IMG/VR virus record: IMGVR_UViG_3300032225_001769
Location: 76,612-140,611 of that record
DNA length: 64,000 nt
Strand: one strand, 5' to 3'
From: a virus
Lineage: Duplodnaviria; Heunggongvirae; Uroviricota; Caudoviricetes
Positions within the stretch are counted from its first letter, which is position 1; each line of letters starts with the position of its first letter. Below, piece by piece: positions 11,904 to 61,514 of this stretch. The position numbers were made by a program, and so were the translations under genes. Below the pieces are notes generated by a model that was not told where the DNA came from, ran no database searches, and saw only the letters and a list, made by a program, of their open reading frames with translations.

Positions 11904-11918
11904 TTTTAATGATAAGTT

Positions 11919-13961: not shown

Positions 13962-14153
13962 TTACAATTCTACCATCCAGTCCGTGTCTTTGTCAAGATG
14001 TACCCAGAAGTGATTGCGTCCGTTCATGGATGTAAGGAACACGCGATTACCCAGGTGTTGCTCAATGATACACTCGCTGTCTGCGTCCATGATGTTAGCA
14101 AACCTGTTCTTTGCCTTGCGGGAGAGTGGTGTGACAAATGCGGTGTTGTTCAT
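13962..14153 (-). CDS. hypothetical protein (63 aa)
   Basis: ORF track; co-oriented; overlapping + ORF 13845..14195 considered less likely. Confidence 0.4.
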   Translation of the reverse strand: MNNTAFVTPLSRKAKNRFANIMDADSECIIEQHLGNRVFLTSMNGRNHFWVHLDKDTDWMVEL

Positions 14154-14196
14154 GCGATTGCCTGCGAATGCCTGTATTGTACTGTGAATGTGTGAG

Positions 14197-14247
14197 TCTC
14201 GTCGAGATGTAGTGTGCCACTTGTGCGACTGTCACATCTCGACGAGA
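14197..14247. repeat. 13-bp perfect inverted repeat TCTCGTCGAGATG / CATCTCGACGAGA flanking a dyad-box copy; same CTCG(A/T)CGAGAT motif as iterons at 20.8 kb
   Basis: read directly. Confidence 0.55.
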
Positions 14248-14265
14248 GTATAATCTCGACTAGAG

Positions 14266-14391
14266 TTATTTCCTCAGGGGAGAATTAAAGTAACGGCGAA
14301 AAGAAGTAAGAACAATGATGCCCGTCGAAACAATACCAACCATACCAAGGAAGGTAACAGCATCACCAGTGAAGTTAAGAGTGTCAGGCAT
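14266..14391 (-). CDS. small membrane peptide (41 aa, MPDTLNFTGDAVTFLGMVGIVSTGIIVLTSFRRYFNSPLRK)
   Basis: ATG overlaps upstream stop (ATGCCTGA); hydrophobic; shorter form of track ORF 14266..14472. Confidence 0.3.
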   Translation of the reverse strand: MPDTLNFTGDAVTFLGMVGIVSTGIIVLTSFRRYFNSPLRK

Positions 14392-14533
14392 TTTCAAAAA
14401 GCGAGTGAATTTTGTTGCGAATGGAGTAAACTTGGTCAGAATCTTCTTCATCATCATCCAGACCATGACCAACTAGATTGTAGATCATGTCCCATTCTTC
14501 ATTGGTGAAGAACTCTATGATGGTGTCGGGCAT
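14384..14533 (-). CDS. small acidic protein (49 aa from MPDTIIEFF...)
   Basis: track 14384..14566 trimmed; ITKSTKRTPS are leader codons. Confidence 0.4.
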   Translation of the reverse strand: MPDTIIEFFTNEEWDMIYNLVGHGLDDDEEDSDQVYSIRNKIHSLFENA

Positions 14534-14620
14534 TGAAGGTGTCCGTTTGGTTGACTTTGTAATCATAGGGCACCTAGAGGGGATTCTAGGTGCCTCTGGG
14601 ACAGTTCTCAGACTGGCACA
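14534..14620 (-). promoter_or_regulatory. cassette element subfamily II: box + hairpin GGCACCTAGA-ATCCCC-TCTAGGTGCC + CCCTATGAT -10 + leader TACAAAGTCAACCAAA
   Basis: the same ~85-bp unit recurs at 15040-15125, 15633-15717, 16115-16201, 16606-16696, 18672-18753 and 19534-19623. Confidence 0.6.
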
Positions 14621-15039
14621 GTGTTCAGATTCTGAAGAGTAAAGTATGCTTCAATCAGATTCTCCACACTGAGAATTGTTCCATCTTTGCTATAAAAAGT
14701 CACACCAGATTCCATACCAGTTCTGCTACTGTAGTTTGCACTATCAATACGCATCACTTTGCTGGTCATAATAGGAAGAAACTGATCGAGCAACCAATCC
14801 CATACATCAGTATTACTATTGCATTCTTCAGTATCAATCTCAACTATAATCTTATCAGCAACTTGACGAACATAAGCATTGAAATCTAGGTCCAGTTCCC
14901 CATCAACTTCACCAAACTCATCAAAGATGAAGTTCGGTTCGCTGATACAACGCTTTGCAAGACCATCAAGAAAAGACTCAAGATTGAAGTTTTCCACTAC
15001 AGCACATGTAGCAGTTGAAGTGAAATGAGTGTAAGACAT
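14608..15039 (-). CDS. acidic hypothetical protein (143 aa from MSYTHFTST...)
   Basis: track 14608..15081 trimmed (MPYDYKVNQRTPQP is leader). Confidence 0.5.
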   Translation of the reverse strand: MSYTHFTSTATCAVVENFNLESFLDGLAKRCISEPNFIFDEFGEVDGELDLDFNAYVRQVADKIIVEIDTEECNSNTDVWDWLLDQFLPIMTSKVMRIDSANYSSRTGMESGVTFYSKDGTILSVENLIEAYFTLQNLNTVPV

Positions 15040-15116
15040 TGGTTGGGGGGTCCTTTGGTTGACTTTGTAATCATAGGGCACCTAGAGGGGATTCTAGGTG
15101 CCGCTGTGCCAGTTGT

Positions 15117-15632
15117 TCAGGTGTCTAACAATGCCTTAAGGGACTTAATTGTATCTTTATATTTCTTCAATTCTTCCTCAAGTTCTTTAATCTTGAGGTC
15201 TTTATCATCTTGAGGTTCTTCTTTTTTCTCAAGAATGGTTCCAATTAAGTTAGTATCCAGAAGGTTAGCACCCTCAAGGTTAGCACCCTCAAGGTTAGCA
15301 CCCTCAAGGATAGCACGCCAAAGGTTAGCACCCCAAAGGTTAGCACCCCAAAGGTTAGCACCCCGAAGGTCAGCATTCATAAGGTTAGCATCCTGAAGGT
15401 CAGCACCCCGAAGGTCAGCATCCTCAAGGTTAGCACCCTCAAGGTTAGCACCCCGAAGGTAAGCACCCCGAAGGTAAGCATTCACAAGGTCAGCATCCTC
15501 AAGGTTAGCACCCACAAGGTTAGCACCCCGAAGGTTAGCACCCCGAAGGTTAGCACCCACAAGGTTAGCACCCCAAAGGTTAGCACCCCAAAGGTAAGCA
15601 CCCGGTTCGATTTTGTATCCGTTGACGATCAT
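15117..15632 (-). CDS. pentapeptide-repeat protein with C-terminal charged coiled-coil tail
   Basis: 171 aa from [13 protein letters not shown]; >25 tandem A(N/D)LxG pentapeptides ([15 protein letters not shown]..), DNA-level 15-nt repeats 15240-15600. Confidence 0.8.
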
Positions 15633-15715
15633 GGTGAGATTCCTTTGGTTGACTTTGTAATCATAAGGCACCTAGAGGGGATTCTAGGTGCCGCTGTGCC
15701 AGTTGTCAGAGTGTC

Positions 15716-15982
15716 CTACCAGGTATAGTCTTTGAACAGTTCTTCTGCATTAGCATCAGGATCAAACATTACATAATCAACATCAGGAAATTGAGTATGA
15801 ACCAATCTCAGTAAATCTACCAAACAGTGCATACCTTCGTTCAAATATGTGTCCCACATTCCAGAGTCAGCAATTACCAAAGAAAGTGTATCACTGGAAA
15901 GATAAGAAATCTTATCAATCTTTGCGGCCTCCAAGGTGTGCAAATGAATGGTGGAGAGTGTAAGAACCTTAGAAAATTCCAT
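15716..15982 (-). CDS. hypothetical protein (88 aa)
   Basis: ORF track. Confidence 0.45.
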   Translation of the reverse strand: MEFSKVLTLSTIHLHTLEAAKIDKISYLSSDTLSLVIADSGMWDTYLNEGMHCLVDLLRLVHTQFPDVDYVMFDPDANAEELFKDYTW

Positions 15983-15985
15983 GAT

Positions 15986-16114
15986 TCAGAAGTCGATGTT
16001 GGAGTTGAGTTTGGCATTGAAAATAGATTCATCTTCTTCATCTTCCCACAATTCGGGAATGTCAAAGATTTCACCGGGAGCATCAGCGATTTCGATCCAG
16101 AGAGTGTCTTCCAT
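15986..16114 (-). CDS. small acidic protein (42 aa, MEDTLWIEIADAPGEIFDIPELWEDEEDESIFNAKLNSNIDF)
   Basis: ATG after cassette 16115-16201; stop TGA 1 nt before next ATG; track ORFs 15874..16155(-) and 15827..16144(+) are other frames. Confidence 0.3.
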   Translation of the reverse strand: MEDTLWIEIADAPGEIFDIPELWEDEEDESIFNAKLNSNIDF

Positions 16115-22391: not shown

Positions 22392-23123
22392 TTAGTGCTT
22401 CAGAGTGGGCATGAGACGCAAACCATCACGAAAGATGGCATTTTTCATGTTGCAACGAACAGTGCTCAGAGTTTCCATAGTGGCAACAGTGTTCACAAGA
22501 AACATTTTTTCAAGTTCTTCACGAATACGCTCAACTGAAACCTTGCTCAGCATTTCAGCAGCAAAGTCACTGTTGACCGCATCCCAGGTATCTGCATCAA
22601 TGTCGAATCCTTTGGTAATATGAAACCTCAGTGCTCGCATGACTCTCAACCCATCTTCTGCGATTCGGTCAGTAGGATTGCCCACAAACTTCAGCAGATT
22701 ATCTTGTAGATCTTGGCGACCACCAAAAGGATCAATCAATTCATTATCCAACCTTGCCATTGCATTGACGGTGAAATCCCGGCGCTCCAGATCGTCCATG
22801 AGAGTACCGGCCAGTACAAAATCAGGCCGCCTGCCGTCGCTGCTAGGACCGTCCTTGCGGGCAAGTACGAAGTCAGCAACGTTTGTGCGATGCTTCAGAG
22901 GATGCCCATCAGGAACCTGTGCCCGAACAGTGAAGAATTCAGGAGTTTCCAAAAATACTTTGAAACCACACCATTTTAGATGTGCTACAAGATTTTTAAA
23001 GGCATCATTGGCATCTCGATGAAACTCTAGAGAACGTGGAATTGCAACGAAATCAACATCCTTGGATTTTACACCGAGAAAAGAATCTCGAACTGCTCCA
23101 CCCACTTCTGCGAATTGAAACAC
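22392..23123 (-). CDS. cca: tRNA nucleotidyltransferase (CCA-adding enzyme), minimal head-domain form
   Basis: 243 aa; class-II polbeta-NTase motifs GGAVRDSFLG..DVD, ERRDFTVNAMA, DPFGG..DL....L..VG.P..R..EDGLRVMRALRF; GTG start with GGAGA SD. Confidence 0.8.
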   Translation of the reverse strand: MFQFAEVGGAVRDSFLGVKSKDVDFVAIPRSLEFHRDANDAFKNLVAHLKWCGFKVFLETPEFFTVRAQVPDGHPLKHRTNVADFVLARKDGPSSDGRRPDFVLAGTLMDDLERRDFTVNAMARLDNELIDPFGGRQDLQDNLLKFVGNPTDRIAEDGLRVMRALRFHITKGFDIDADTWDAVNSDFAAEMLSKVSVERIREELEKMFLVNTVATMETLSTVRCNMKNAIFRDGLRLMPTLKH

Positions 23124-23207
23124 TTTCAGTCTCCGTTGTGTACGAATGTATTATAAGGAATCACAGGGACTTTATGAGTGTCCCTGTGCCAGTTGTTAAA
23201 GTGTCCT
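23124..23207 (-). promoter_or_regulatory. cassette element subfamily III: box GGACACTTTAACAACTGGCACAG + hairpin GGGAC-N9-GTCCC + CCTTATAAT -10; near-identical copy at 23700-23774
   Basis: read directly. Confidence 0.6.
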
Positions 23208-23693
23208 CAAGTATTGATAAAGATGATGTGCATAAATGGATTTGTTGATATAAAGAATTTCACCAGTTTCTTTATTAAGTTTTACTCCATAATCAAGAGA
23301 AGGATTTTCAATACTATTCATAATGACAATATCATCTTTTGTGAATATTGGATTGATATTAAATTTATCCATTTCAACAAGTTTATGAAACTCCTGAAGT
23401 TCCTCTTCGGTCAAATCACTTACATAGTTACTATAGTCAACCGGAATTTGAATTCTATCATTTTCAAACTTTTCATATTGATATTTTTTTTCTTTGCCGT
23501 ATTTGAACGACATATTATCAGTATCAATGTTATCTCTCAGGTCATCTTCAAATGCTTCAATTACATACCTTTTATAACCTTTTTGAGATGGAATATTCTC
23601 AGTATCCACACACCATTCAAGATAATCTTCAACAGAAAACTTAGAGGTATGAGTAAAGGTAATTGTGATTGATTGAAGAGTGATAGTATCCAT
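23196..23693 (-). CDS. hypothetical protein (165 aa)
   Basis: ORF track. Confidence 0.5.
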   Translation of the reverse strand: MDTITLQSITITFTHTSKFSVEDYLEWCVDTENIPSQKGYKRYVIEAFEDDLRDNIDTDNMSFKYGKEKKYQYEKFENDRIQIPVDYSNYVSDLTEEELQEFHKLVEMDKFNINPIFTKDDIVIMNSIENPSLDYGVKLNKETGEILYINKSIYAHHLYQYLRTL

Positions 23694-23773
23694 CAGGTTT
23701 CTTTGTCTAAGAATGTATCATAAGGAATCACAGGGACTTTATGAGTGTCCCCGTGCCAGTTGTTAAAGTGTCC

Positions 23774-24316
23774 TCAACTCTTATGATTTTTATCAAATGG
23801 TGCCTTGAAATAATGATTTGCAGCAGAATGGAAAATCATTACACCTTCAGGATTATAAAAATTAGGAGAGACGACAGATCCATAAAACCAAAGATGTTCC
23901 ATTACATCATCAAGTGCATTTGTACTAAACTCTCCAGTATAAAGAGTCGGAACAACATGGCAACAAGCAGGAAGATTTTCTTCATTCCAGATACTTACAT
24001 TAAACAGTGAGAATCGTTTCTCGCCCTTTGGAAGATTATAACCTCGTTGAATACCAGAACCCCACCATTCTCCGTGATGATGACCAGCACCAAGTTTCAT
24101 CAATTCGCTCTTATTTTCAGATGCCCAGCGATGAAATCCAAAATTGTCAGATTCTGCACTCAACCAACGATTACGACTTCCAATAAACATATCTCCATCA
24201 TCAGTGATGTAGATAAGACCATTAGTTCCGTCAATCTTTTCAGTGACCACGCATTCTTTATGAAGACGGGGAATTTTGGGAAAGGGAATAAATTCGGGAT
24301 AGTCAGTTTGATTCAT
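23774..24316 (-). CDS. putative RNA ligase, Rnl2-like nucleotidyltransferase domain (PF09414-like)
   Basis: 180 aa; ligase motif I TEKIDGTNG (KxDG); acidic motif-III/IV-like stretches. Confidence 0.55.
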   Translation of the reverse strand: MNQTDYPEFIPFPKIPRLHKECVVTEKIDGTNGLIYITDDGDMFIGSRNRWLSAESDNFGFHRWASENKSELMKLGAGHHHGEWWGSGIQRGYNLPKGEKRFSLFNVSIWNEENLPACCHVVPTLYTGEFSTNALDDVMEHLWFYGSVVSPNFYNPEGVMIFHSAANHYFKAPFDKNHKS

Positions 24317-24376
24317 TAGTTTTGTCTCCTTAATGTGTAAAATAATAACAACCTTTCTGTATGAATACTGGCATGA

Positions 24377-24733
24377 TCAAGAAGCAATTTTTACATATTC
24401 AGAACTAAAACCACCAATCCATTCTTGATTTTGATACAAGAACGCAATTGCATCATCAGTACAAGAAGTTACATCACCAGGAAATGCAATGTATTGAGTC
24501 TGCTCATCGGTAAAGTCTGGAAATCCAATATCTTTCATTTCCAGTTCTGATAGGCAAAACTCTTCATCATCATATGCTTTTTCATTCATAGCATCAAACT
24601 CACTCTTACTCATCACCAGTTCTTCATAGACAACACGGCGACGAACAAGTGTAACTTTTTCAGAGTCATTCATTTCTTGAATATCCCAACCCATATTTGC
24701 TGCAATGGCGGGATGAACTAAAGTAGGATTCAT
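24377..24733 (-). CDS. acidic hypothetical protein (118 aa from MNPTLVHPAI...)
   Basis: track trimmed at leader (..NKSTKRKRSL). Confidence 0.45.
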   Translation of the reverse strand: MNPTLVHPAIAANMGWDIQEMNDSEKVTLVRRRVVYEELVMSKSEFDAMNEKAYDDEEFCLSELEMKDIGFPDFTDEQTQYIAFPGDVTSCTDDAIAFLYQNQEWIGGFSSEYVKIAS

Positions 24734-24893
24734 GAGAGATCGTTTGCGTTTGGTTGACTTGTTCATTATAAGGCACAAGAAGGTGAATCAGTGACTACCT
24801 TGTGCCAGTTGATCAAGTGGTCTCAATCTTCGTAATCATCCTCATTATCTCTACAATATACATTTGCCTTTGTCTTTCTAGGATCTAATGGTT

Positions 24894-25619
24894 TCAATCT
24901 TCCCATTCATTACCATAATCAGGACCAATTCCAGTTTTAGTATCACCGGACATGGGTTTTAATCTTTTCTTACCTTTTGCCTTTTGCTTAGGTGATGGTT
25001 CTCTACCTACACTTGCATATTGATCTCCTGATTGACCTACTGGACCAAAACCTGCTCTTTGATACAATTTTGACCTTGTATTCTTTTCTGGATTTTCATC
25101 TGTTGGATTAGAAAGTGGATAATTAGTTAGCACTGACCCATGAGGAAGACGATGTTGAACATGTGTATCCCAGACATTCTTTGCATCTCTTGCAATTTGT
25201 TTTTTATTAGCATCATCAGATTTATCACGACCAGCACTATACCACATTATATCATGAACTGGTTTACCATCTTTCGTTTTGTTTCCGGTATTTTTCACAA
25301 GATAATTGATTCCCTTAGAACGCACTCTCAATAATTTATCTCTATCAGTAAAAACCTCTGCATCTGGATGAGAACTTGAATTAAAGTTAGGATTATCTGC
25401 ACCGTGTCTAACCTTATCATTTGATCTTGTAATTTGCTTTAGACTTCTTCCCAAATGTCTCATTCTTTCTTCGTGTTCTGAAGAATCTTTATATTTTCTC
25501 TTATTTCTAAAATATGAAGATCTAGACTTTCCATATGGCGTTTTTCCAGATGGCAACTTCTCATCTGGGGCATAATACCTTTCTTGAAGATCGCATATGA
25601 ATTGAGAATATGTCTTCAT
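24894..25619 (-). CDS. highly basic, low-complexity hypothetical protein (241 aa from MKTYSQFICDLQERYY...)
   Basis: track 24894..25682 trimmed to first plausible ATG. Confidence 0.45.
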   Translation of the reverse strand: MKTYSQFICDLQERYYAPDEKLPSGKTPYGKSRSSYFRNKRKYKDSSEHEERMRHLGRSLKQITRSNDKVRHGADNPNFNSSSHPDAEVFTDRDKLLRVRSKGINYLVKNTGNKTKDGKPVHDIMWYSAGRDKSDDANKKQIARDAKNVWDTHVQHRLPHGSVLTNYPLSNPTDENPEKNTRSKLYQRAGFGPVGQSGDQYASVGREPSPKQKAKGKKRLKPMSGDTKTGIGPDYGNEWED

Positions 25620-25635
25620 CTTTGTCCTTTTTATT

Positions 25636-26043
25636 TTATTTATCAATAAGTTCGTCAAGTAAGGACTCAAACTCAGGATCAATCAGAGGTTCTTCATATT
25701 TTTCACAATAAACATAGATAATCTCCGGAACACTGCCAAAATATCCTTGTAACCATGGACACAACCACAGTTTCATTGAACTCAGTTTATCTGTATAATA
25801 TGAACCAGATTTATCAGTCTCAATCAATTTGATTTCGGTAATTGCACGATCAAATGAATCAGTATCGAGATAGAAATTGATCTTATCACCCGATACTGGT
25901 TTAATGTTATTCAATACTTCAAAATACCAATCAATCACAGTTTCAGTACCATTATATAATGCTTCTGCGACTGTATTCTGGTGTTCATGATCGAATGCCC
26001 AAATGCCATATTCAGTTTTATATGCAGTGATTTTAAGTTTCAT
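25636..26043 (-). CDS. hypothetical protein (135 aa)
   Basis: ORF track. Confidence 0.5.
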   Translation of the reverse strand: MKLKITAYKTEYGIWAFDHEHQNTVAEALYNGTETVIDWYFEVLNNIKPVSGDKINFYLDTDSFDRAITEIKLIETDKSGSYYTDKLSSMKLWLCPWLQGYFGSVPEIIYVYCEKYEEPLIDPEFESLLDELIDK

Positions 26044-26134
26044 AAGATTATAAAGTTTATCTTTGTATTATACAAGAAGTAACGACCACATGAAGGGGTC
26101 TTGTGCCAGTTCGTCAAGTGTCCTTTAGGATGTT

Positions 26135-26599
26135 TTAAAAATTCCCTTTACCCTGACCCACATCGAAGACCCAGATGCCTCGATTGATCCACATATCAAC
26201 CACTCGCTTTCGATCATCGAAAACCATTAGAATGTTATGAGTCTTTTCAATTTCATCTGCAATCTCACCTTTGACGATTGAATCATCACGTTTGTCATGC
26301 TCCTTTCTCATAAGAAGAGAATGATATTCAAAACAGTGCTTTGCCAACCATTCTTCAGTTTTTTCACGATAATCATTAGACCTACCAGACACAAAAATAA
26401 GGTCAGTTTCCTTATCAATGTAGTAAGTTAGTGCTCGGAATACAAATTCCACAGCAGCATTCGGCGTATCATTCATCATGCCCTCATTCCATGCCCTCCA
26501 GTTTTTCGGTTTGTTGGCAACAAAGTGACGACGATGAAGAACATCACACAGAGTTCCATCCAAATCGAAACAAATCGCATTTCTTTTAATCATAATCAA
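26135..26599 (-). CDS. pseT: polynucleotide 3'-phosphatase (HAD family), Pnk C-terminal domain as separate ORF
   Basis: 154 aa; HAD motif I FDLDGTL at N-terminus; ATGA overlap with kinase ORF. Confidence 0.7.
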   Translation of the reverse strand: MIMIKRNAICFDLDGTLCDVLHRRHFVANKPKNWRAWNEGMMNDTPNAAVEFVFRALTYYIDKETDLIFVSGRSNDYREKTEEWLAKHCFEYHSLLMRKEHDKRDDSIVKGEIADEIEKTHNILMVFDDRKRVVDMWINRGIWVFDVGQGKGNF

Positions 26600-27108
26600 T
26601 TACCTCGCTCAATGGTTTCAAAGTTTTCGGTGTTGTTGGGAATCTGAAATGAATAGTACATGGACTTCAAAACACTTTCAGGAATGATCTTTCCTTCACG
26701 ATGCCTATTCCGTTCTAGTGCTTCTTCCAGAGTGATTTCAAAATAAACTGCTTTCTTGTGATAATGTTTTGGAACACGGGAAGTCTTAGTCTTGCGGGTC
26801 TTGGGTGTGAGATTCGTTTGATCCCAGATAATATCACGACCCTCATGAACTGCAAACTTCAATTGTTTCCACATAAACTCGGTTGCTGCGGAAATATGAT
26901 CTTGGAAGACCTCATTATATGTTTTACCCTGCTCTTCCGCAACTTTTTGAATGTAATTGTCCGTAGAAAGAACAACTGCATTTTGCCAGTATGGTTGAGA
27001 AAGTAGAGTTTTGACATAAGTGGACTTTCCGGAAGTAGGAATGCCACAAAGAAGAATCAGTTCCATGTGATTGGTGTGTATGTGAATACTATAGGGCATC
27101 AGAATCAA
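26596..27108 (-). CDS. pseT: polynucleotide 5'-kinase (P-loop), Pnk N-terminal domain as separate ORF
   Basis: 170 aa; Walker A LLCGIPTSGKST; T4 Pnk kinase-domain-like. Confidence 0.7.
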   Translation of the reverse strand: MILMPYSIHIHTNHMELILLCGIPTSGKSTYVKTLLSQPYWQNAVVLSTDNYIQKVAEEQGKTYNEVFQDHISAATEFMWKQLKFAVHEGRDIIWDQTNLTPKTRKTKTSRVPKHYHKKAVYFEITLEEALERNRHREGKIIPESVLKSMYYSFQIPNNTENFETIERGN

Positions 27109-27135
27109 AAGTCATCATGCCCTTGTGCCAGTTGA

Positions 27136-28329
27136 TCAGGTGGCATTCCAGTTCAGATTACCAAACATCCATTTGACACTATTAACTTTTGTTTGCGTAC
27201 TCACAGACTTACGAATCTGATCCACCAGAAGATGCTTTACGGGAACTTTACGACGCAAACCGAACATAAAGTTTTGCAGATGTTTTGGAGTTTCCTTCAT
27301 AACAAGAATAGCAAACTCCTTCTGATCCTGACCTTGATCCAAAGAAACATACTGATCGTGAATGGTCGTTCCAACGTCCTCCACTGCCATCCAGAATGCC
27401 TTTTGAAACGCTCGGAGACGATCTGCGTCTTCTGGGGTCAGCAACGGCACAACGTCGTCCACAGCATCTTCTACAATCGTCTCAATGACGTTCTTTTCCT
27501 GACTGATGGCATCCTTTGACCTATGACGAAGAACATAATCATCTGCCTTGATTTTCAACATATACCCACTATCAAAGCGAATCACTACACCTTCAGAATC
27601 TTCCCACTTGCGAATGTGCTCTACAATATCAGTAATGTTTGCAGTTCCATCACTAGCAATTGCTTTCACAAAAGGAATATTATAAGATTCTGCATACATC
27701 TTCATAGACTTATAAGCAACATACTGTCCAGAATTATTGTAACGAATTGCAGTCAGAATCAGATTGTCTTCGGGATAGTCCACAACAATACGATTGATAC
27801 GAGAGCACCATTCAAAAATAGGAGTGGTTCCTTTTTGAATCCATTTCTTGATGAAAGTGGAATATTGTGGTTTGTCGGCAATAAAGGTTTCGGCATTCAT
27901 TGCCACATCAGTCACTCCTGCTTTGGTAGCAAGACGAAATCCACCATCAGGAAGAGGAATCGGACGAATCATAGATCCATCCAGTTTCTCTAGAATCACA
28001 TGAGGTTCATCAAGATTCACCTTATTCAGATGAGTCTCATGTTTCTCACCAATGTTAAAGAACTTATGATAAGGACGAGAGATCAGATTGCCTTGCAGAT
28101 CGAAGATCAGACCACGGCATTCACGGCGAACAGCACTCTCAAGAGCACGGGCAGCTCGCATCTTGGCAGAACCACCAGCAACACTCACGGAAGGGAATGT
28201 ATCTTCAAGATTTACCATGTAATTGACTACGGAATACCATTCCTTGTCAAAGACACGAAACTCCTCACGACCTTCAATGTGAGGAAGAACATCATCAATT
28301 TTAGAGATAGCAGGAAAAGTGTATTTCAT
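27136..28329 (-). CDS. rnlA: RNA ligase 1 (T4 RnlA-like)
   Basis: 397 aa; motif I ILEKLDGSM (KxDGS); size and architecture like T4 Rnl1 (374 aa). Confidence 0.7.
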   Translation of the reverse strand: MKYTFPAISKIDDVLPHIEGREEFRVFDKEWYSVVNYMVNLEDTFPSVSVAGGSAKMRAARALESAVRRECRGLIFDLQGNLISRPYHKFFNIGEKHETHLNKVNLDEPHVILEKLDGSMIRPIPLPDGGFRLATKAGVTDVAMNAETFIADKPQYSTFIKKWIQKGTTPIFEWCSRINRIVVDYPEDNLILTAIRYNNSGQYVAYKSMKMYAESYNIPFVKAIASDGTANITDIVEHIRKWEDSEGVVIRFDSGYMLKIKADDYVLRHRSKDAISQEKNVIETIVEDAVDDVVPLLTPEDADRLRAFQKAFWMAVEDVGTTIHDQYVSLDQGQDQKEFAILVMKETPKHLQNFMFGLRRKVPVKHLLVDQIRKSVSTQTKVNSVKWMFGNLNWNAT

Positions 28330-31405: not shown

Positions 31406-31642
31406 TCAGTCGTAAGTCTTGACTACTTCTTCTTTAAGTGGGTCTTTTTTCTTGAATTGGAAGTTCACCCATTTTTCCACTACTTTCAATTCCAAATCAT
31501 AGGAATCGTATGTATTAACAAAAGGATTAAGATGACAATCAACCCAAGTGCCAAGTACATTCATTTGAGCATAATAGTACAGAGAATAGCAAGGTTCACC
31601 ATCAGGAAGTCTGTTGCGTGAGACAATACGGTACTTCATCAT
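31406..31642 (-). CDS. hypothetical protein (78 aa)
   Basis: ORF track. Confidence 0.45.
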   Translation of the reverse strand: MMKYRIVSRNRLPDGEPCYSLYYYAQMNVLGTWVDCHLNPFVNTYDSYDLELKVVEKWVNFQFKKKDPLKEEVVKTYD

Positions 31643-32448
31643 TTATCAGTTGGGAAGAATTGCAGAGGAGTTCCGTTCACAATCAGAATTTTCTGAATAG
31701 AACCGTTCTCAAATGCAGCCTTGAGAATTTCGTTCCTTTGATATTCAAGTGATTGAGAAGATACCGTAGAAGCAAGTGCCTTGTTTTCTTCTGCTTTCAA
31801 CTGTGCAGTCTGCGTCCTGACTTGTTGTTCTTTATTCGCAGATTGTGCGGCAACCACACGATTTACGGAAGCAACTAAATCATCAGGAAGGTCTGCCTTA
31901 CCAACGATAATGGAATCAATGGTAATCTTACCTTCAAGACCGTTTTTCTTCAGAGCATCAGAAAGATTAGTTTTAATCGTGTCCTGAATTTGCTCCAAAC
32001 TTGAGTTCACAGCAAGTGCAGAGAACTCGTCTACAGATTGATTGACGGCAGAAGTAATCAGGCGAGCAATGTAACTACTCATAAGTTGAACTTGGTTACC
32101 ATCACTAATCGCGTGATTGGTCATATCATAACCAGTATAGAACTCATAGAGAGAAGTAGGATTGATACTGTAGGTTACAGTAACATCCATTTCCTTCATA
32201 ATTGTGTTATCTTTAGTCTTGGGGCGAAGGTCATTTGCCGTTACCGTAATCTTACGAGTATTGAAGACTTTAATACTACCAAAGCCATCATACTTAATTC
32301 CAGGAGTAAGAACTTCATTCTTTACCTGACCATCAAAACCTACGAATAGACCATTTTCACCAGTGCTAATTGTGGTGAATTGTCCTGCCGTAAGCACAAG
32401 AGCAAGAGCACCAACACCAACACCGATACCGACTTTTGCGAGAGACAT
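31639..32448 (-). CDS. SPFH/band-7 (prohibitin/HflC-like) membrane protein
   Basis: ~269 aa from MSLAKVGIGVG (track start 32475 is TTG); N-terminal TM helix then PHB-domain pattern (..ITVTANDLRPKTKDNTIMKEMDVTV..., ..DSIIVGKADLPDDLVASVNRVVAAQ..) and C-terminal coiled coil. Confidence 0.65.
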   Translation of the reverse strand: MSLAKVGIGVGVGALALVLTAGQFTTISTGENGLFVGFDGQVKNEVLTPGIKYDGFGSIKVFNTRKITVTANDLRPKTKDNTIMKEMDVTVTYSINPTSLYEFYTGYDMTNHAISDGNQVQLMSSYIARLITSAVNQSVDEFSALAVNSSLEQIQDTIKTNLSDALKKNGLEGKITIDSIIVGKADLPDDLVASVNRVVAAQSANKEQQVRTQTAQLKAEENKALASTVSSQSLEYQRNEILKAAFENGSIQKILIVNGTPLQFFPTDK

Positions 32449-32475
32449 AATTAAAAGGGGGGGGATAAGGAACAA

Positions 32476-38549: not shown

Positions 38550-39026
38550 TTATATTTCCCCCATTAAGCGATTTGGAAATGAGTGTGCCACTTCTGATTT
38601 TGTCACAGCGGTTTTGTAATCTAAGTATTCCAGATATAATTTGAATTCTTGTTCTCGTGCTTCAATTTCATGAGGACGATTCTCATACTCAAGTTCTTCT
38701 ACACTAGTGGAATCATAATACATTTTTCCATGTTTTGCACGAAGACTACCAGTCACCCATTGACGCAAATGCACCATTTCGTGCAACAAAGTCTTTATGT
38801 ACATTTCTCGATTCATATGAGTATCAAGTTCAATCAGAAACTCACGAGGACGATAAGATTGTCCAGTATAGCCACAATAACCATATGCAAATTCACGTTT
38901 CAAACCACGATGAAGTATCTCAACATGTATTTTGTGTCGTGGTAGGAACTTATTTAAAAACCAAGTAGTAACATCTTCACAGACTTTTTTACTATAACCA
39001 TATCCAGAATGTATAATACAACTCAT
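38550..39026 (-). CDS. putative SprT-like zinc metalloprotease
   Basis: ~158 aa from MSCIIHSGYG; HExxH motif LLHEMVHLRQW in SprT-like context; track 38550..39068 trimmed. Confidence 0.5.
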   Translation of the reverse strand: MSCIIHSGYGYSKKVCEDVTTWFLNKFLPRHKIHVEILHRGLKREFAYGYCGYTGQSYRPREFLIELDTHMNREMYIKTLLHEMVHLRQWVTGSLRAKHGKMYYDSTSVEELEYENRPHEIEAREQEFKLYLEYLDYKTAVTKSEVAHSFPNRLMGEI

Positions 39027-39186
39027 AGAAAATGGCTCAAAGTAGAATAGATAACTCGATATCCCCAATTCATAAAAATAAAAAAGGAAGAGATAAAAAT
39101 GAGTTTGTCAGTGGATGTCATAATTTACATGTAAAAATAACTAGTGCAATATTATAATTCTGTTTTTGGTAGTTCAAAAACTGTCC

Positions 39187-40804: not shown

Positions 40805-40999
40805 TCAATCCTCCAAAATTATAAGATGATGAAACTTTGCTAATGCTCTGGAGAAAATAATTTCATCTTCTGTTAAGGAAGTAACCCCTACCGCAGGTTT
40901 AAAAACAACGCGAACACTGTTTCCGTAGTGTTCTCTTATACATTTTATTGAGTCATATAAATGCTCGTCAGATAATGCCACCCAATCGAAATTATGCAT
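40805..40999 (-). CDS. hypothetical protein (64 aa), member of C-terminal 'A(L/Y)(A/E)K(F/Y)xHL' paralog family
   Basis: ..EDEIIFSRALAKFHHLIILED. Confidence 0.4.
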   Translation of the reverse strand: MHNFDWVALSDEHLYDSIKCIREHYGNSVRVVFKPAVGVTSLTEDEIIFSRALAKFHHLIILED

Positions 41000-41007: not shown

Positions 41008-41172
41008 CTATAAAATTATAAGGTGCTGGTACTTTTCTAGTGCTTTGGAGAAGATAATTTGTTCTTCTGTGCCATACAAATCAGAACAATACCGAGGTAG
41101 ATTATCTTTATAATTATTCAGAACCCAACGATAACCATTTTCGTCTCTTACAATAATATTAAATGTACTCAT
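41008..41172 (-). CDS. small hypothetical protein (54 aa, MSTFNIIVRDENGYRWVLNNYKDNLPRYCSDLYGTEEQIIFSKALEKYQHLIIL), paralog of 40805..40999
   Basis: ATGA overlap with ClpS stop; below cutoff. Confidence 0.35.
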   Translation of the reverse strand: MSTFNIIVRDENGYRWVLNNYKDNLPRYCSDLYGTEEQIIFSKALEKYQHLIIL

Positions 41173-41462
41173 TCTTCCGGTTCCATTGACGAAGGAACAC
41201 CTTTAGATTTCAGACCATCAACATAAAACTCTGCCATCTCCACATCACAAATCTTAATTAGACCAATTCCAGTAGTATGGGCAGTCAGCATAACTTCTAC
41301 TGCACTAGTTTGAGATAACTGGCAGACTTCCATCAAACTCATACACACCAGTTCCGCAGAAACTCCATCATCATTATGAAGCAGCACACGATACTTTGGT
41401 GCGTGTTTGGGTGTAGTTTGATTTTCTACGACTGTGGGTTTTTCAAGAGTTTGGGAAGGCAT
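41169..41462 (-). CDS. clpS: ATP-dependent Clp protease adaptor ClpS homologue
   Basis: 97 aa; ClpS core pattern KYRVLLHNDDGVSAELVCMSLMEVCQLSQTSAVEVMLTAHTTGIGLI (cf. bacterial Y(K/R)V.L.NDDYTPMEFV..VL..F.........M..VH..G). Confidence 0.7.
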   Translation of the reverse strand: MPSQTLEKPTVVENQTTPKHAPKYRVLLHNDDGVSAELVCMSLMEVCQLSQTSAVEVMLTAHTTGIGLIKICDVEMAEFYVDGLKSKGVPSSMEPEE

Positions 41463-41509
41463 TGTGGTTCTCCGTGTGTATGAACATAGTATAACAGGGT
41501 ATGAGAAGG

Positions 41510-42079
41510 TCAGGTGCTGCTATTGTGACAGTTCACCAAGTGTCCGTATTTCTCATATGCCATAACCATTAAGCAAATTTCTTCGGTTGCATTTGGATGT
41601 TCAGCAACCCAATAGCGAACATTAAAATCCTCATCAGTTGCAAGAAGTTCTAGAGTTTCTGGTGGTGTATTAGGATTATAAGCAACCCCACAGCGAACAC
41701 TAGAATCCTCATCAGTTGCAAGAAGTTCTAGAGTTTCTGGTGGTGTATTGGGATTTTTAGCAACCCCCCAGCGAACACTAGAATCCTCATCAGTTGCAAG
41801 AAGTTCTAGAGTTTCTGGTGGTGTATTGGGATTTTTAGCAACCCGCCAGCGAACATTAAAATCCTCATCAGTTGCAAGAAGTTCTAGAGTTTCTGGTGGT
41901 GTATTAGGATTATAAGCAACACCCATACGAATATACCAATGTTCATCATTCGCAAGATATTCAAGAATTTCAATTGGTATACTATCAATGGGGGATCTTA
42001 CGGTACTACATCTTACATCAAAACTTTCGTGTTTTGCATAAGTCCACCATTCATCTAGAGTGAGTTCAGTTTGCGTCAT
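41510..42079 (-). CDS. HEAT-repeat protein (PBS-lyase HEAT-like repeats)
   Basis: 189 aa; five tandem ~30-aa repeats NPNTPPETLELLATDEDxxVRxxVAx encoded by 90-nt DNA repeats 41640-41930. Confidence 0.7.
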   Translation of the reverse strand: MTQTELTLDEWWTYAKHESFDVRCSTVRSPIDSIPIEILEYLANDEHWYIRMGVAYNPNTPPETLELLATDEDFNVRWRVAKNPNTPPETLELLATDEDSSVRWGVAKNPNTPPETLELLATDEDSSVRCGVAYNPNTPPETLELLATDEDFNVRYWVAEHPNATEEICLMVMAYEKYGHLVNCHNSST

Positions 42080-42270
42080 TTTAATATAAGGTGTTCAAAT
42101 TTTTCATATGCTTTAACAAACAAATATGCTTCTTCTGGAATATCTGAACCATACTCTAGATAAAGAGACAATTTTCCAGAAATAAACCCAATATAACAGG
42201 GGAAGTATTCTGGATACTTTTTGTTTATTATATCAACAAGATGTGAGTTAGTAATGAAGTCCATAATCAA
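42076..42270 (-). CDS. hypothetical protein (64 aa), AYEKFEHL family
   Basis: ORF track; C-terminus FVKAYEKFEHLILK. Confidence 0.4.
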   Translation of the reverse strand: MIMDFITNSHLVDIINKKYPEYFPCYIGFISGKLSLYLEYGSDIPEEAYLFVKAYEKFEHLILK

Positions 42271-42271: not shown

Positions 42272-42580
42272 CTACGCCAGTTTCAGATATGGTTTTTTAA
42301 GATACCATTTCTCTGCATTCCACTGTATTAACAGTTCTTCTGGAGCATTTGGATGTATAAAAATCCTTGAACGTATCAAAAAATCATCAGAATTACAATT
42401 CCCAAGATTATAAAGTTTCCATAGGGTTTCTTTTGAGGTGTGTTTATTACTTGTAAGAAATCTTTTTACATCCATATAAGGGGAATATGAAAGAGCATCA
42501 AGAACGTCCGAAGAGGTATCACGTATTGCTAGTATCTCTTGTTCTCGTTGGGAAAGTGATAGAATTTCTTCTTTAGTCAT
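42272..42580 (-). CDS. hypothetical protein (102 aa)
   Basis: ORF track. Confidence 0.4.
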   Translation of the reverse strand: MTKEEILSLSQREQEILAIRDTSSDVLDALSYSPYMDVKRFLTSNKHTSKETLWKLYNLGNCNSDDFLIRSRIFIHPNAPEELLIQWNAEKWYLKKPYLKLA

Positions 42581-42891
42581 TTTGTTAATTTCCCAAACTT
42601 TTCATAGGCGCACAACAATAATAGCACATCTTCTGAAGAATGTAGATTTCTTTTTACAAATGCACGAACAGTAGGAAATTCTGAAGTTGCAAGTTCCTTT
42701 AATTTGCTAGTTGATGTTGATGTTGATGTTGCTGCAAGTCTACACATTACATTGAACTCATTCCACCAAATCCAATCTTCAAAGTTAAAGAAACTATTCT
42801 CATTTTCTCTTTGTTCTGCAATTTCAGTCATATCTTCATAATTAAGGTTAGTCATTTTAGTTCTTCCCCTCCCCATTTTAACAATAATCAA
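42577..42891 (-). CDS. hypothetical protein (104 aa), AYEKFGKL family
   Basis: ORF track. Confidence 0.4.
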   Translation of the reverse strand: MIIVKMGRGRTKMTNLNYEDMTEIAEQRENENSFFNFEDWIWWNEFNVMCRLAATSTSTSTSKLKELATSEFPTVRAFVKRNLHSSEDVLLLLCAYEKFGKLTK

Positions 42892-43270: not shown

Positions 43271-44068
43271 TCATTCAGGAATACTCTTCAGAGCATTCTC
43301 AATAGTATCAAGAATTTCAGGAAGCAAATCACTATGTTTCCTCACAGTCTCAAAATCTTTCAATGCCTGTGATTTGAGAGTTGGTTTTGGGCGACGAATA
43401 GCACGAAGAACATTCCCAGATACGCATTCTTCATTCAATTCCACAACAACACAACACGATTCCAGTTCCCCATCAGCAGCAATTTGCATATGAAAATCAA
43501 ACAGTTCTTGGAGACAATCTACAACTTTCTCTGGGGTTGGAGTAATGCCTTTCCATTCCCAAAGAGCAGGACTATCACCTCCAAGTTCATCAATGAACTT
43601 TGAGAGTGCTGTTGCCCACTGCTTTGATACTTCTTTCTCTGCAACATTGTAGCAAGTTTTATCACCTGGGGTCAGATTATCATAAAACTCTGGTTTGGTA
43701 ATAGTCATTTCAGGTTCCTCTGTAGTGTTTACGAATACCTTGAGAGTTTTTCCTTCATCTTGTAGTGAAGTGGTGATACGATTATCTTTCTCCCAATTCA
43801 CATACACTCTGCCTTCATCGTGAGTGATTATCTCTACTCTGTTGATTACGGGTTCTGGGTCTTCATCTGCAAGTACAATGTATACAATATCGTATGAATG
43901 TTCCTTACCAATAACGACTTTCCCTTCATTAGAGTAGTTCCTACCATCAATAGAATAGGGATAAAAACAATATTCTTCAGCGGAGGATAGAGTACCCGTA
44001 AACATCAAAAAATTACGGAAAAATACTGTTACAGGTTTGTTTGCGTAGTCTTTGAGATTGATAGTCAT
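43271..44068 (-). CDS. hypothetical protein (265 aa) sharing an internal module with 44065..44682
   Basis: shared EPVINRVEIITHDEGRVYVNWEKDN(R/K)ITTSLQDEG(K/R)TLKVFVNT; 59-nt identical DNA core 43802-43860 = 44395-44453. Confidence 0.5.
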   Translation of the reverse strand: MTINLKDYANKPVTVFFRNFLMFTGTLSSAEEYCFYPYSIDGRNYSNEGKVVIGKEHSYDIVYIVLADEDPEPVINRVEIITHDEGRVYVNWEKDNRITTSLQDEGKTLKVFVNTTEEPEMTITKPEFYDNLTPGDKTCYNVAEKEVSKQWATALSKFIDELGGDSPALWEWKGITPTPEKVVDCLQELFDFHMQIAADGELESCCVVVELNEECVSGNVLRAIRRPKPTLKSQALKDFETVRKHSDLLPEILDTIENALKSIPE

Positions 44069-44682
44069 TTCAAATTCTCCTTCAGATGATTAAGAGCATC
44101 GGTATATCCATCCAAATATTCATTACAAACCACCCAATCACAAGAATACTGTGAAATCCATTCTTCTACAATCTTGCAAATCTTCTCACATCCCCGGCGA
44201 GGCACTTGTGTTTTTGTGAGAAGATTACTATTAAGTGTCCGTGGTTTGGGTTCTTCTACTCTTTGATACTTTACACCATTAATCTCAATAATGTCTGGTT
44301 CCTCCGTGTTTGTGTTTGTATTGACAAATACCTTGAGCGTTCTCCCCTCGTCTTGTAGGGATGTGGTGATTTTATTGTCTTTCTCCCAGTTGACATACAC
44401 TCTGCCTTCATCGTGAGTGATTATCTCTACTCTGTTGATTACGGGTTCTGGGTTCCTACAAGATTCTTCATATCGTTCAAGAATTGCATCAATGCGAACC
44501 TTTGTTGCGTCACCAAAATAAACGAGGTTTCCATTACCGTCATCTATAACTCGTCGTATATGTTGAAGAACCTCCACTAGTTCTTTTGTGATTTCAGTCA
44601 TTTCAGTTTCTTCAGTGGTCATAAGGGGGTCTTCATCAATCCAACCAATCAATTTCAAATTTAGTGGAGAATTGCTCTTCAA
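44065..44682 (-). CDS. hypothetical protein (205 aa), paralogous module with 43271..44068
   Basis: ATGA overlap with downstream paralog. Confidence 0.5.
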   Translation of the reverse strand: MKSNSPLNLKLIGWIDEDPLMTTEETEMTEITKELVEVLQHIRRVIDDGNGNLVYFGDATKVRIDAILERYEESCRNPEPVINRVEIITHDEGRVYVNWEKDNKITTSLQDEGRTLKVFVNTNTNTEEPDIIEINGVKYQRVEEPKPRTLNSNLLTKTQVPRRGCEKICKIVEEWISQYSCDWVVCNEYLDGYTDALNHLKENLK

Positions 44683-61439: not shown

Positions 61440-61514
61440 TAGCGGTGATGGGATTCGAACCCATACTGTCGAAATTTTAAGTTTCGTGCCTGCTGCCAGT
61501 TGGGCTACACCGCC
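61440..61514 (-). tRNA. tRNA, anticodon UAA (Leu by anticodon) but type-I short variable arm; no encoded CCA
   Basis: manual cloverleaf: acceptor GGCGGTG/CACCGCT, anticodon stem CGAAA/TTTCG loop CTTAAAA, variable ACAGT, T-arm ATGGG-TTCGAAT-CCCAT, D-loop with GG. Confidence 0.7.

Follow-up and report, generated by a model that had tools for sequence, protein, structure and literature searches.

The stretch of viral DNA analysed here (64,000 nucleotides, hereafter the window) carries a homologue of the Clp adaptor ClpS, encoded on the minus strand at 41169..41462 (97 amino acids plus stop codon, ATG start) and maintained under purifying selection; a chance open reading frame is excluded. We consider it fairly probable that the product is a functional, phage-adapted ClpS that docks on the ClpC of its host and alters which protein N-termini reach the ClpC-ClpP3/R protease and, as part of this same explanation, that the gene arose from a ClpS1-type gene of cyanobacteria and has long belonged to the genomes of a T4-like cyanomyovirus lineage. 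Such an adaptor would bind ClpC and deliver substrates with a changed specificity, to the benefit of the phage.

Family, fold and viral context

A preliminary description of this DNA had proposed a phage-encoded ClpS homologue and a profile check of it, and the proposal is borne out by a match to Pfam PF02617 (ClpS; residues 20-86, E=1.9e-15) that, at 56.8 bits, lies well above the gathering cut-off of 23 bits, and by the retention of the anchoring residues N30, D31 and H62; the strings KYRVLLHNDDG and VMLTAHTTG are both present in the translation. With the NCBIfam model NF000671, a cyanobacterial ClpS1-type equivalog, the protein scored 101.9 bits, i.e., under the curated equivalog cut-off of 107 bits. 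Four further phage-type sequences (P0020, P0036, P0053 and L093) scored 97-105 bits, three cellular ClpS1 sequences 151-169 bits, and all phage sequences tested (clades A and B and the outliers P0053 and L093) fell under the cut-off. The closest sequence match in the PDB is Arabidopsis ClpS1 (7d34, E=3e-9). The AF2 model (core pLDDT ~90) has the compact alpha/beta fold of the ClpS core domain, which occupies residues 23-97 (41172..41396, minus strand) in the order beta1-alpha1-alpha2-beta2-alpha3-beta3, with strands at residues 23-29, 66-73 and 91-95 and helices at 36-47, 51-64 and 74-86. The first 38 Foldseek matches in the PDB were ClpS structures without exception, the best being 7d34_A (rmsd 0.9 Å over 77 columns, target-normalised TM-score 0.92).

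Kyanoviridae markers among the window ORFs identify the source as a T4-like cyanomyovirus. Its gp6 baseplate wedge is 67% identical to that of Synechococcus phages S-SKS1 and S-SRM01, and the same window encodes other viral genes, i.e., a T4 Rnl1, a UvsW-like helicase, a tail fibre and Kyanoviridae Gp96. A Shine-Dalgarno motif (GGAG, 41470..41473, minus strand, read from the sequence) precedes the clpS ATG by 7 nt, and scans for sigma-70 promoters and terminators around the gene scored no higher than shuffled sequences, revealing no specific promoter. Pfam scans of a subset of the window ORFs, short of many small ones, turned up neither a Clp unfoldase gene nor a Clp peptidase gene. A megablast search of the 36-48 kb part of the window against GenBank phages gave no match, tblastn with the window ClpS against 50,697 GenBank phage records gave none at E<1e-3, and a literature search found no paper on a cyanophage ClpS. 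Since clpS is absent from cultured cyanophages, isolate-based studies would miss the gene.

Metagenomes yielded 46 homologues. Phage contigs of 108-249 kb carry such homologues, and on many independent contigs phage genes lie on either flank. The ORF is intact, its start and length being conserved in more than 40 homologues, and pairwise dN/dS within the phage clade is 0.06-0.14 (0.12 for one unsaturated pair with a dS of 0.34). The GC3 of clpS (0.31) equals that of the phage (mean 0.315) rather than that of freshwater picocyanobacterial clpS (0.74-0.90). The closest cellular relatives are of the cyanobacterial ClpS1 type at ~50% identity (as are all of the best 80 matches of a genome scan), and in a neighbour-joining tree of ~78 columns the phage sequences fall into a clade of their own, with no cellular member, adjoining the picocyanobacteria, with modest bootstrap values (69% for clade A, 34% for A+B).

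Docking surface, N-terminal extension and substrate pocket

Residue conservation was assessed by column counts over 121 sequences (35 of phage clade A, 12 of phage clade B and 74 cellular ClpS1), the cellular part being ClpS1-type only. Eight residues, i.e., N30, D31, V39, H62, E75, E78, F79 and Y80, are invariant in all three groups. Half of them lie at the start of alpha3 (D73-V-E-M-A-E-F-Y80; 41223..41246, minus strand), where A77 is invariant in the three groups as well. The acidic pair E75/E78 in this helix corresponds to E79/E82 of E. coli ClpS, the two glutamates that dock on the N-domain of the unfoldase (bioRxiv 10.1101/2024.06.12.598358). At the other end of the protein, residues 1-22 (41397..41462, minus strand) form an N-terminal extension that is predicted to be disordered (pLDDT <50 over residues 1-17 in the AF2 model) and that ends in a junction with two conserved prolines, P18 and P22. 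Its length and sequence are conserved across the phage clade, with an insertion of 3-4 residues relative to cellular ClpS1. The extension of E. coli ClpS enters the ClpA pore, which it engages as a pseudo-substrate, and is required for substrate hand-over; other (non-N-degron) classes of substrates are inhibited by ClpS (PMC9663308). We postulate that the acidic alpha3 surface (E75, E78, F79 and Y80) docks on the N-domain of host ClpC and that the disordered 22-residue extension would thread into the ClpC pore, analogous to E. coli ClpS in ClpA. To our knowledge, ClpA itself is absent from cyanobacteria. The partner named in the preliminary description, ClpAP, had to be abandoned, as in cyanobacteria the unfoldase served by both ClpS1 and ClpS2 is ClpC, in combination with a ClpP3/R core, and not ClpA (PMC7966870).

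For the substrate pocket we used the residue list of PMC12493166 and an alignment to C. crescentus ClpS and AtClpS1. The alpha-amino anchors N30, D31 and H62 correspond to N34, D35 and H66 in E. coli and to N47, D48 and H79 in C. crescentus. The alpha2 wall of the pocket, M58-L-T-A-H62 (41277..41291, minus strand; M62...H66 in E. coli), is likewise retained, M58 being Met in 31 of 35 clade-A phage sequences and in 74/74 cellular ones. It is in the beta1-alpha1 segment (L28-H-N-D-D-G-V-S-A-E-L-V39; 41346..41381, minus strand) that phage and cell part ways, the loop NDDGVSAELV departing from the cellular pattern N-D-[DP]-x-N-x-M-E-[YHF]-V. The gatekeeper position 36 (M40 in E. coli, M53 in C. 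crescentus) is occupied by Ala in the window protein; all 35 clade-A phage sequences have Ala or Gly there, whereas Met is universal among the 74 cellular ClpS1. Position 34 (T38 in E. coli, T51 in C. crescentus) has lost its polar Thr/Asn to Val, a residue found in 34/35 clade-A sequences (Ile in the remaining 1/35), against Asn in all 74 cellular sequences and in 125 of 142 subfamily representatives among the matches listed. Position 38 is Leu in 33/35 clade-A sequences and Tyr, His or Phe in 74/74 cellular ones. In all, six fixed differences separate the phage sequences from the 74 cellular ClpS1, of which three, the gatekeeper among them, lie in the pocket loop, and the V..A pair recurs in just one of the 142 other representatives of the subfamily (clustered at 50% identity) among the matches listed. 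The pocket is thus conserved in part: the anchors are kept, and the gatekeeper Met and the Thr/Asn have given way to Ala and Val.

In E. coli ClpS, the gatekeeper Met40 keeps out beta-branched residues (bioRxiv 10.1101/2024.06.12.598358; PMC12493166). AtClpS1 has a gatekeeper Arg, and the identity of this residue tunes specificity (PMC7966870). The absence of Met does not disqualify the phage protein, as Arg (plants) and Tyr (Leptospira ClpS1) occur at this position in genuine ClpS proteins (PMC7966870; PMC12493166). With V34 and A36 both fixed in the phage clade, its specificity is probably unlike that of host ClpS1. The replacements by Ala and Val suggest a pocket mouth that is wider and more hydrophobic, and free protein N-termini captured in this pocket, anchored by N30, D31 and H62, would probably include residues that host ClpS1 refuses, e.g., Val or Ile. 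In this way ClpC-ClpP3/R would be re-programmed by the delivery of a different set of proteins, and the host adaptors ClpS1, ClpS2 and NblA would be out-competed for ClpC. The roles imagined in the preliminary description, destruction of defence proteins or stabilisation of phage proteins, are speculative, the present results pointing neither to nor away from any given target. The loss of a polar side chain near the bound N-terminus at V34 could also act in the opposite direction, i.e., weaken N-degron binding and not broaden it. Moreover, as cyanobacterial ClpS2 is reported to bind Leu, Phe, Tyr, Val and Ile (PMC7966870), acceptance of Val and Ile may already be present in the cell via ClpS2 and so may not be novel there.

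Neighbouring genes and alternative explanations

Directly upstream of clpS lies a gene for an LRV-repeat protein of 189 amino acids (41510..42079, minus strand; Pfam LRV PF01816 E=2e-37, PDB 1lrv E=5.5e-10), separated from it by 47 nt that contain no terminator-like site. LRV-like ORFs adjoin clpS in 7 of 11 distinct phage contexts, at 42-74 nt upstream in the window and in loci L001/2, L005, L089, L091 and L092, and within 1.2 kb in locus L087. This adjacency persists where ClpS is only 51-59% identical and the remaining neighbourhood differs. The family is expanded in two of these loci, with at least seven distinct LRV paralogues around clpS in L091 and about five in L092. On the other side, a 54-aa ORF (41008..41172, minus strand) begins with an ATG that overlaps the clpS stop codon (ATGA) and ends in ALEKYQHL, a tail common to the LRV family; homologues that are 45-49% identical occupy the same overlapping position in L001-L004, and tail-bearing ORFs likewise overlap the clpS stop in L005 and L089. 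No LRV-like gene was found in the examined flanks of the phage clpS loci L129/130, L131/132, L133 and L093/94, no LRV-like ORF at the 80 cellular clpS1 loci (best 80 matches), and neither family in GenBank cyanophages. A query of IMG/VR with the LRV protein returned two loci only (L127 and L128), both without ClpS. A universal LRV-ClpS pairing is not upheld, as four of the 11 contexts have no LRV-like gene in the examined flanks, leaving LRV as a frequent neighbour and its product as a candidate partner of ClpS.

Whether the two act as a two-part module, with the LRV-repeat proteins serving as target-binding co-adaptors or as substrates, is a question on which the same loci speak both ways. 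The association outlasts the divergence of ClpS and of its surroundings, the paralogues are multiplied in L091 and L092, both families are missing from GenBank cyanophages, and ClpF, which acts with plant ClpS1, provides a precedent (PMC7966870). Nevertheless, each gene also occurs without the other (clpS with no LRV-like gene in the examined flanks of L129/130, L131/132, L133 and L093/94, LRV without ClpS in L127 and L128), and adjacency may merely reflect a shared hyperplastic region, so we regard such a module as quite unlikely. A bolder extension of the pocket argument, which we put forward tentatively and hold to be doubtful, is that the open gatekeeper turns N-terminal residues that are normally stabilising into degrons (for example the Val exposed by methionine aminopeptidase on many mature proteins), thereby switching ClpC-ClpP3/R, while the host is infected, to turnover of the proteome that is wholesale or newly targeted; the expanded, fast-diversifying LRV paralogues might then select targets as co-adaptors.

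The phage protein might instead be an anti-adaptor, which would occupy the N-domain of ClpC and shut off other substrate classes, delivery being unimportant, with the outcome that phage proteins are protected or that host ClpS1, ClpS2 and NblA are kept off ClpC. This would agree with conservation being strictest at the ClpC-docking residues, with the loss of two canonical pocket residues and with the known inhibition by ClpS of non-N-degron substrates of the unfoldase, e.g., ssrA-tagged ones in E. coli (PMC9663308). A mere blocker, however, would not readily account for a pocket in which N30, D31, V39 and H62 are still invariant and M58 is kept in 31/35 phage sequences, nor for V34 and A36, which are themselves fixed under purifying selection and not drifting, nor for the conserved N-terminal extension that E. 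coli ClpS needs for hand-over, and we judge this explanation to be unlikely. We give little credence to the phage gene being simply a dosage copy that has the specificity of host ClpS1 and adds capacity to the N-degron pathway during infection: the fold, anchoring residues, docking surface and ClpS1 descent are what such a copy would have, but the six fixed differences from 74 cellular ClpS1, gatekeeper among them, and the gap between phage (97-105 bits) and cellular (151-169 bits) scores with NF000671 argue against it. Finally, a host-derived remnant that is decaying or without function, or a chimera with host DNA created by assembly, to which the score slightly below the equivalog cut-off could point, is hardly credible; it is effectively refuted by the phage genes on both sides of clpS on many independent contigs, dN/dS of ~0.1 and phage-like GC3, alongside an intact ORF whose start and length are conserved in more than 40 homologues. 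A functional, phage-adapted ClpS that works through host ClpC is the reading that we prefer.

Comparison with known adaptors

Phage-encoded ClpS is already known from proteobacterial jumbo phages, and what is new here is a cyanophage lineage with a distinctive pocket. With two pocket-mouth residues fixed in a rare combination under purifying selection, this lineage amounts to a natural experiment on what determines N-degron specificity, and it raises the question of whether the N-end rule of bacteria has here been rewritten by a virus. Its closest cellular relative, at ~50% identity, is the ClpS1 of cyanobacteria and plastids, with Arabidopsis ClpS1 (7d34) as the best structural match at 0.9 Å. 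The two share the LLHND and A-H-x-x-G motifs, the E-x-A-E-F-Y docking helix, the C-terminal S-x-E-P-E tail and an N-terminal extension of similar length, which in the phage contains the insertion of 3-4 residues. Unlike ClpS1, the phage protein is virus-encoded, scores below the equivalog cut-off and has a gatekeeper Ala in place of Met (Arg in plants), Val34 in place of Asn, Leu38 in place of Tyr/His and I69/K70 in place of V/I.

Gatekeeper-Ala mutants of ClpS reportedly gain recognition of Val and Ile (a finding ascribed to Wang et al. 2008). The E. coli M40A and C. crescentus M53A mutants (PDB 3g1b, 3g3p) likewise combine an Ala gatekeeper with an otherwise intact pocket, whereas in the phage the Ala is natural, fixed and paired with a second change, Asn to Val.

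The ClpS of proteobacterial jumbo phages is annotated in GenBank (PHROG 27368) in the Pseudomonas PA5oct group, Agrobacterium Atu_ph07, Sinorhizobium Phosso, Salicola SCTP-2 and Vibrio 2.275.O, and has been discussed as an adaptor bringing targets to host Clp (Iyer et al. 2021; Atu_ph07 paper), while our literature search found no functional study of any phage ClpS. It was found with a different viral query and not by tblastn from the window ClpS (E<1e-3), to which PHROG 27368 matches weakly (E=1.1e-5, 26 bits). These proteins form a separate lineage with other hosts, a T-T/P-x loop of the proteobacterial type and an E-T/E-K helix of the ClpA type. Their gatekeepers deviate in some cases (Leu in Atu_ph07, Phe in SCTP-2 and the Vibrio phage), but a loss of the gatekeeper Met in all phage ClpS was rejected, as PA5oct and Phosso retain it. 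Some jumbo phages also encode their own ClpA/ClpP (Atu_ph07 paper), whereas none was seen among the window ORFs scanned.

A functional parallel from cyanophages themselves is NblA, also a small host-derived adaptor that acts via host ClpC and the Clp protease (PMC12695635; PMC7966870). Viral NblA has been shown to benefit infection, and its hijacking of host proteolysis has measurable effects on ocean photosynthesis (PMC12695635). NblA is a four-helix-bundle dimer, related to ClpS neither in sequence nor in fold, and recognises phycobiliproteins, not free N-termini. Should the phage ClpS prove to be another ClpC adaptor with a mechanism of its own, the control that viruses exert over protein turnover in the host would exceed the removal of phycobilisomes.

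The clpS gene and its viral carrier

The gene occupies 41169..41462 on the minus strand as a complete ORF of 97 codons with an ATG start, and a GGAG is present at 41470-41473, 7 nt 5' of the ATG. Only 47 nt lie between clpS and the stop of the preceding gene, and the ATG of the following gene overlaps the clpS stop (ATGA), so clpS is part of a closely packed co-directional array. The preliminary description had read this ORF as a ClpS homologue from the sequence alone, and the assignment is confirmed: the strings it quoted are present, the Pfam ClpS profile it named matches (PF02617, E=1.9e-15, 56.8 bits, gathering cut-off 23), among NCBIfam models the ClpS equivalog NF000671 scores best (101.9 bits, cut-off 107), and a PDB sequence search returned four solved ClpS structures headed by Arabidopsis chloroplast ClpS1 (7d34, E=3e-9). 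An AlphaFold2 model, with 44 homologues in the input alignment, has a core (residues 21-97) at pLDDT ~90 and a disordered N-terminus (residues 1-17, pLDDT <50), and with this model Foldseek recovered 38 ClpS chains from the PDB at E<=1e-3, the top match being 7d34_A (rmsd 0.9 Å, 77 columns, target-normalised TM-score 0.92). The ORF thus encodes a genuine member of the ClpS family, well beyond chance.

Judged by its gene content, the window comes from a T4-like cyanomyovirus. Its gp6 baseplate wedge (PHROG 219, E=3e-205) has 67% identity to those of Synechococcus phages S-SKS1 and S-SRM01, it also encodes T4 RNA ligase 1, a UvsW-like helicase, a 1837-aa tail fibre and the Kyanoviridae proteins Gp96 and GP88, and the minus strand holds 122 of its 146 non-overlapping ORFs. 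The GC3 of clpS (0.31) cannot be distinguished from the phage mean (0.315, sd 0.11), unlike that of freshwater picocyanobacterial clpS (0.74-0.90), and the gene has thus long resided in phage genomes.

Elsewhere in the window we observed an SPFH/Band-7 protein (31639-32475, minus strand; PF01145 E=8e-19, PHROG 200), a tRNA-Leu(TAA) gene (61440-61514, minus strand) and a block of higher GC (8000-16000, 0.44-0.47 vs ~0.36 in the rest) with a pentapeptide-repeat protein (15117-15671), an HNH endonuclease on the opposite strand (10924-11361), DUF6011, Gp96 and GP88. A group of RNA-repair-type genes on the minus strand (22392-28329) comprises a CCA-adding/poly(A)-polymerase-like nucleotidyltransferase (22392-23123), an RNA ligase (23774-24316), a PNKP-type phosphatase (26135-26599), an AAA_33 kinase (26596-27108) and T4 Rnl1 (27136-28329); at L129, another phage clpS locus, an AAA_33 kinase immediately follows clpS.

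Genes around clpS

Immediately upstream of clpS is the gene of an LRV-repeat protein (41510-42079, minus strand; PF01816 E=2e-37, PDB 1lrv E=5.5e-10), in which near-identical tandem DNA repeats at 41.6-41.9 kb code for the LRV units. In the window and in the related loci L001/L002, L005, L089, L091 and L092, clpS is preceded at a distance of 42-74 nt by an LRV-like ORF, and in L087 such an ORF is <=1.2 kb away. Two of these, L091 and L092, keep LRV next to clpS though they have almost nothing else in common with the window, and carry further LRV paralogues around it (at least seven distinct ORFs at 1.4-11.8 kb of the locus in L091, about five at 0.6-7.8 kb in L092). No LRV homologue occurs in 80 cellular clpS1 loci or in any GenBank cyanophage, the sole GenBank phage match being Moorella phage MTATph1. 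Given that the gene was not found in the flanks examined of four phage ClpS contexts (L129/130, L131/132, L133 and L093/94), the association, seen in 7 of 11 contexts, is frequent but not obligatory, and we regard a functional link between ClpS and LRV as a minority hypothesis.

The LRV protein is also one of five minus-strand ORFs around clpS with a common C-terminal tail, A-[LY]-x-K-[FY]-x-[HK]-L-(I/V/T), the others being located at 40805-40999, 41008-41172 (54 aa, overlapping the clpS stop), 42076-42270 and 42577-42891. The motif is found again on 2-4 small ORFs beside clpS in L001-L003, L005 and L089/L090; the small ORFs have no Pfam match, and together they look like one paralogous family that has its C-terminal cap in common with the LRV protein. 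Two adjoining minus-strand ORFs farther upstream (43271-44068 and 44065-44682) have a near-identical internal stretch, PEPVINRVEIITHDEGRVYVNWEKDN[RK]ITTSLQDEG[KR]TLKVFVNT, which suggests a recent partial tandem duplication, and both have homologues beside clpS in L001-L004.

Phage-type ClpS sequences and their substrate pocket

A search of 5.8 billion proteins yielded 46 homologues of the phage ClpS, and more copies were found in IMG/VR. Clade A (64-94% identity) is carried by metagenomic contigs reaching 183, 249 and 108 kb, where its neighbours are small genes without Pfam match and cyanophage-typical genes, e.g., transaldolase, and clade B (51-59% identity) is also located, at least in part, on viral contigs (L091, 89 kb; L092, 125 kb; L131, with GP88). 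The nearest cellular sequences among the best 80 matches (one genome per species) are cyanobacterial ClpS with 46-57% identity, from Prochlorococcus, Synechococcus/Cyanobium, Pseudanabaena, Nostoc and others, which cluster with plant ClpS1 and are thus of ClpS1 type. In a neighbour-joining tree of the ClpS core (~78 columns) clade A is monophyletic (bootstrap 69%), and clades A and B plus L091 include no cellular sequence and adjoin picocyanobacteria, A+B having a support of only 34%. Between members of clade A, pairwise dN/dS ranges from 0.06 to 0.14 (for the unsaturated pair of window and L001, dN 0.041, dS 0.34, ratio 0.12), which shows that clpS is under purifying selection in phages.

We assigned the pocket residues of the phage ClpS from those defined in C. 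crescentus and E. coli, on the basis of PDB alignments and the residue list of PMC12493166, with column counts covering 35 sequences of clade A, 12 of clade B and 74 cellular ones. Residues N30, D31 and H62, equivalent to E. coli N34, D35 and H66 that grip the substrate alpha-amino group (PMC12493166), are invariant in all three sets, as is V39, and M58 (E. coli M62) is retained in 31/35, 12/12 and 74/74 sequences, respectively. E75 and E78 fall within an invariant E-x-A-E-F-Y segment common to cellular ClpS1, and their E. coli equivalents, E79 and E82, form an acidic pair stabilising the docking of ClpS on the unfoldase N-domain (bioRxiv 10.1101/2024.06.12.598358). The N-terminal extension (NTE) is also kept, predicted to be disordered, with a proline-containing junction (P18, P22) that is described as a ClpS trait (PMC9663308).

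Six differences are fixed between clade A and cellular ClpS1, i.e., V (34/35) vs N (74/74) at position 34, A (33/35) or G (2/35) vs M (74/74) at 36, L (33/35) vs Y/H/F at 38, I vs V at 69, K vs I at 70 and D vs E at 82, and the clade A NTE has a 3-4-residue insertion. Position 34 is the pocket residue T38 of E. coli and T51 of C. crescentus (PMC12493166), and position 36 is the gatekeeper at the pocket mouth (Met40 and Met53, respectively). A gatekeeper Met admits Leu, Phe, Tyr and Trp and excludes beta-branched residues (PMC12493166; bioRxiv 10.1101/2024.06.12.598358), while in Arabidopsis ClpS1 it is an Arg that tunes specificity (PMC7966870). Clade B has Pro or Phe here, never Met. Of the best 142 subfamily cluster representatives (50% identity, from 1.84 billion proteins), 61 have R as gatekeeper, 51 have M and 7 have A, 125 have N as the Thr38 equivalent, and one has the V..A pair. 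The N-degron pocket, which the preliminary description made a test of its reading, is hence conserved in its invariant anchors and not at positions 34 and 36, and we consider this partly canonical pocket the most interesting aspect of the protein.

All phage sequences scored on NF000671 (the window protein, one more of clade A, one of clade B and two outlying phage-type sequences) reach 97-105 bits, slightly below the cut-off, vs 151-169 bits for cellular ClpS1, consistent with the sequence divergence of phage ClpS. Separately, the D36 position of E. coli is Pro in picocyanobacterial ClpS1 (loop NDPVNSMEYV; 33/74 cellular sequences, including L011-L034, L039, L050, L056 and L066), whereas clade A retains the canonical NDD in 34/35, so the phage acidic motif is more canonical than that of its likely hosts.

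Proposed role and known phage adaptors

ClpS sits on the N-domain of its unfoldase and takes the substrate N-terminal residue into a hydrophobic pocket (PMC7966870, PMC9663308), its NTE engaging the pore as a pseudo-substrate for hand-over, and at the same time it blocks other substrate classes (PMC9663308). The preliminary description named ClpAP as the partner protease; in cyanobacteria this should instead be ClpC with ClpP3/R (PMC7966870), where ClpS1 prefers F, Y and W and ClpS2 accepts L, V and I as well (PMC7966870). In the phage protein the alpha-amino anchors are kept, as are the NTE and the docking surface, and at the pocket mouth two small, hydrophobic residues (V34 and A36) are fixed. 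This conservation pattern suggests that the phage protein is most likely still a ClpC adaptor, with a changed N-degron specificity. It would necessarily compete with host ClpS1, ClpS2 and NblA for ClpC.

The specificity may have shifted toward accepting beta-branched residues, as in the M40A and M53A gatekeeper mutants, which Wang et al. reportedly found in 2008 to accept them; the loss of a polar residue at position 34 could weaken binding instead. That the phage ClpS is a pure ClpC blocker is argued against by the pocket anchors, which remain invariant, and by the new pocket residues, which are fixed and not drifting. New N-termini for ClpS could be made by the product of a 172-aa ORF 2.1 kb downstream of clpS (38550-39068, minus strand), if this is an endopeptidase; it has an HEMVH zinc-peptidase motif and a sub-threshold SprT-like Pfam match (23.6 vs 25.6 bits), but the related clpS loci examined contain no homologue of it.

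Phage-encoded ClpS is already known as a category. GenBank annotations exist for several jumbo phages (the Pseudomonas PA5oct group, Agrobacterium Atu_ph07, Sinorhizobium Phosso, Salicola SCTP-2, a Vibrio phage and Acinetobacter phage records), such genes have been read as adaptors delivering targets to host ClpAP (Iyer et al. 2021), and in the Atu_ph07 paper ClpS is one of seven Clp-like genes. Unlike the window protein, the jumbo-phage ClpS is of proteobacterial type and a separate lineage, not recovered by tblastn with the window protein at E<1e-3 (the PHROG match of the latter is only E=1e-5), and its pocket loops vary, with T..M in PA5oct and Phosso and L or F in others. A widespread viral ClpS lineage distinct from that of the window (loop NDDxTTFDFV; L096-L126 from IMG/VR and L134-L138 from GenBank jumbo phages) is carried by contigs as long as 619 kb and has mostly Phe as gatekeeper, and of the GenBank jumbo-phage proteins those of Atu_ph07 and Vibrio 2.275.O are also missing the pocket His.

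No cyanophage homologue of the window ClpS was detectable in 50,697 GenBank phage records, and a full-text literature search found no paper in which a cyanophage genome is connected with ClpS or a Clp adaptor. For specialists, a ClpS of a cyanomyovirus whose gatekeeper is rewritten is noteworthy and easily tested, if not astonishing, and it is its rare, fixed pocket-mouth combination that makes it notable. The nearest functional precedent, though unrelated to the phage ClpS, is cyanophage NblA, a small adaptor that acts via ClpC and has been shown to aid infection (PMC7966870, PMC12695635).
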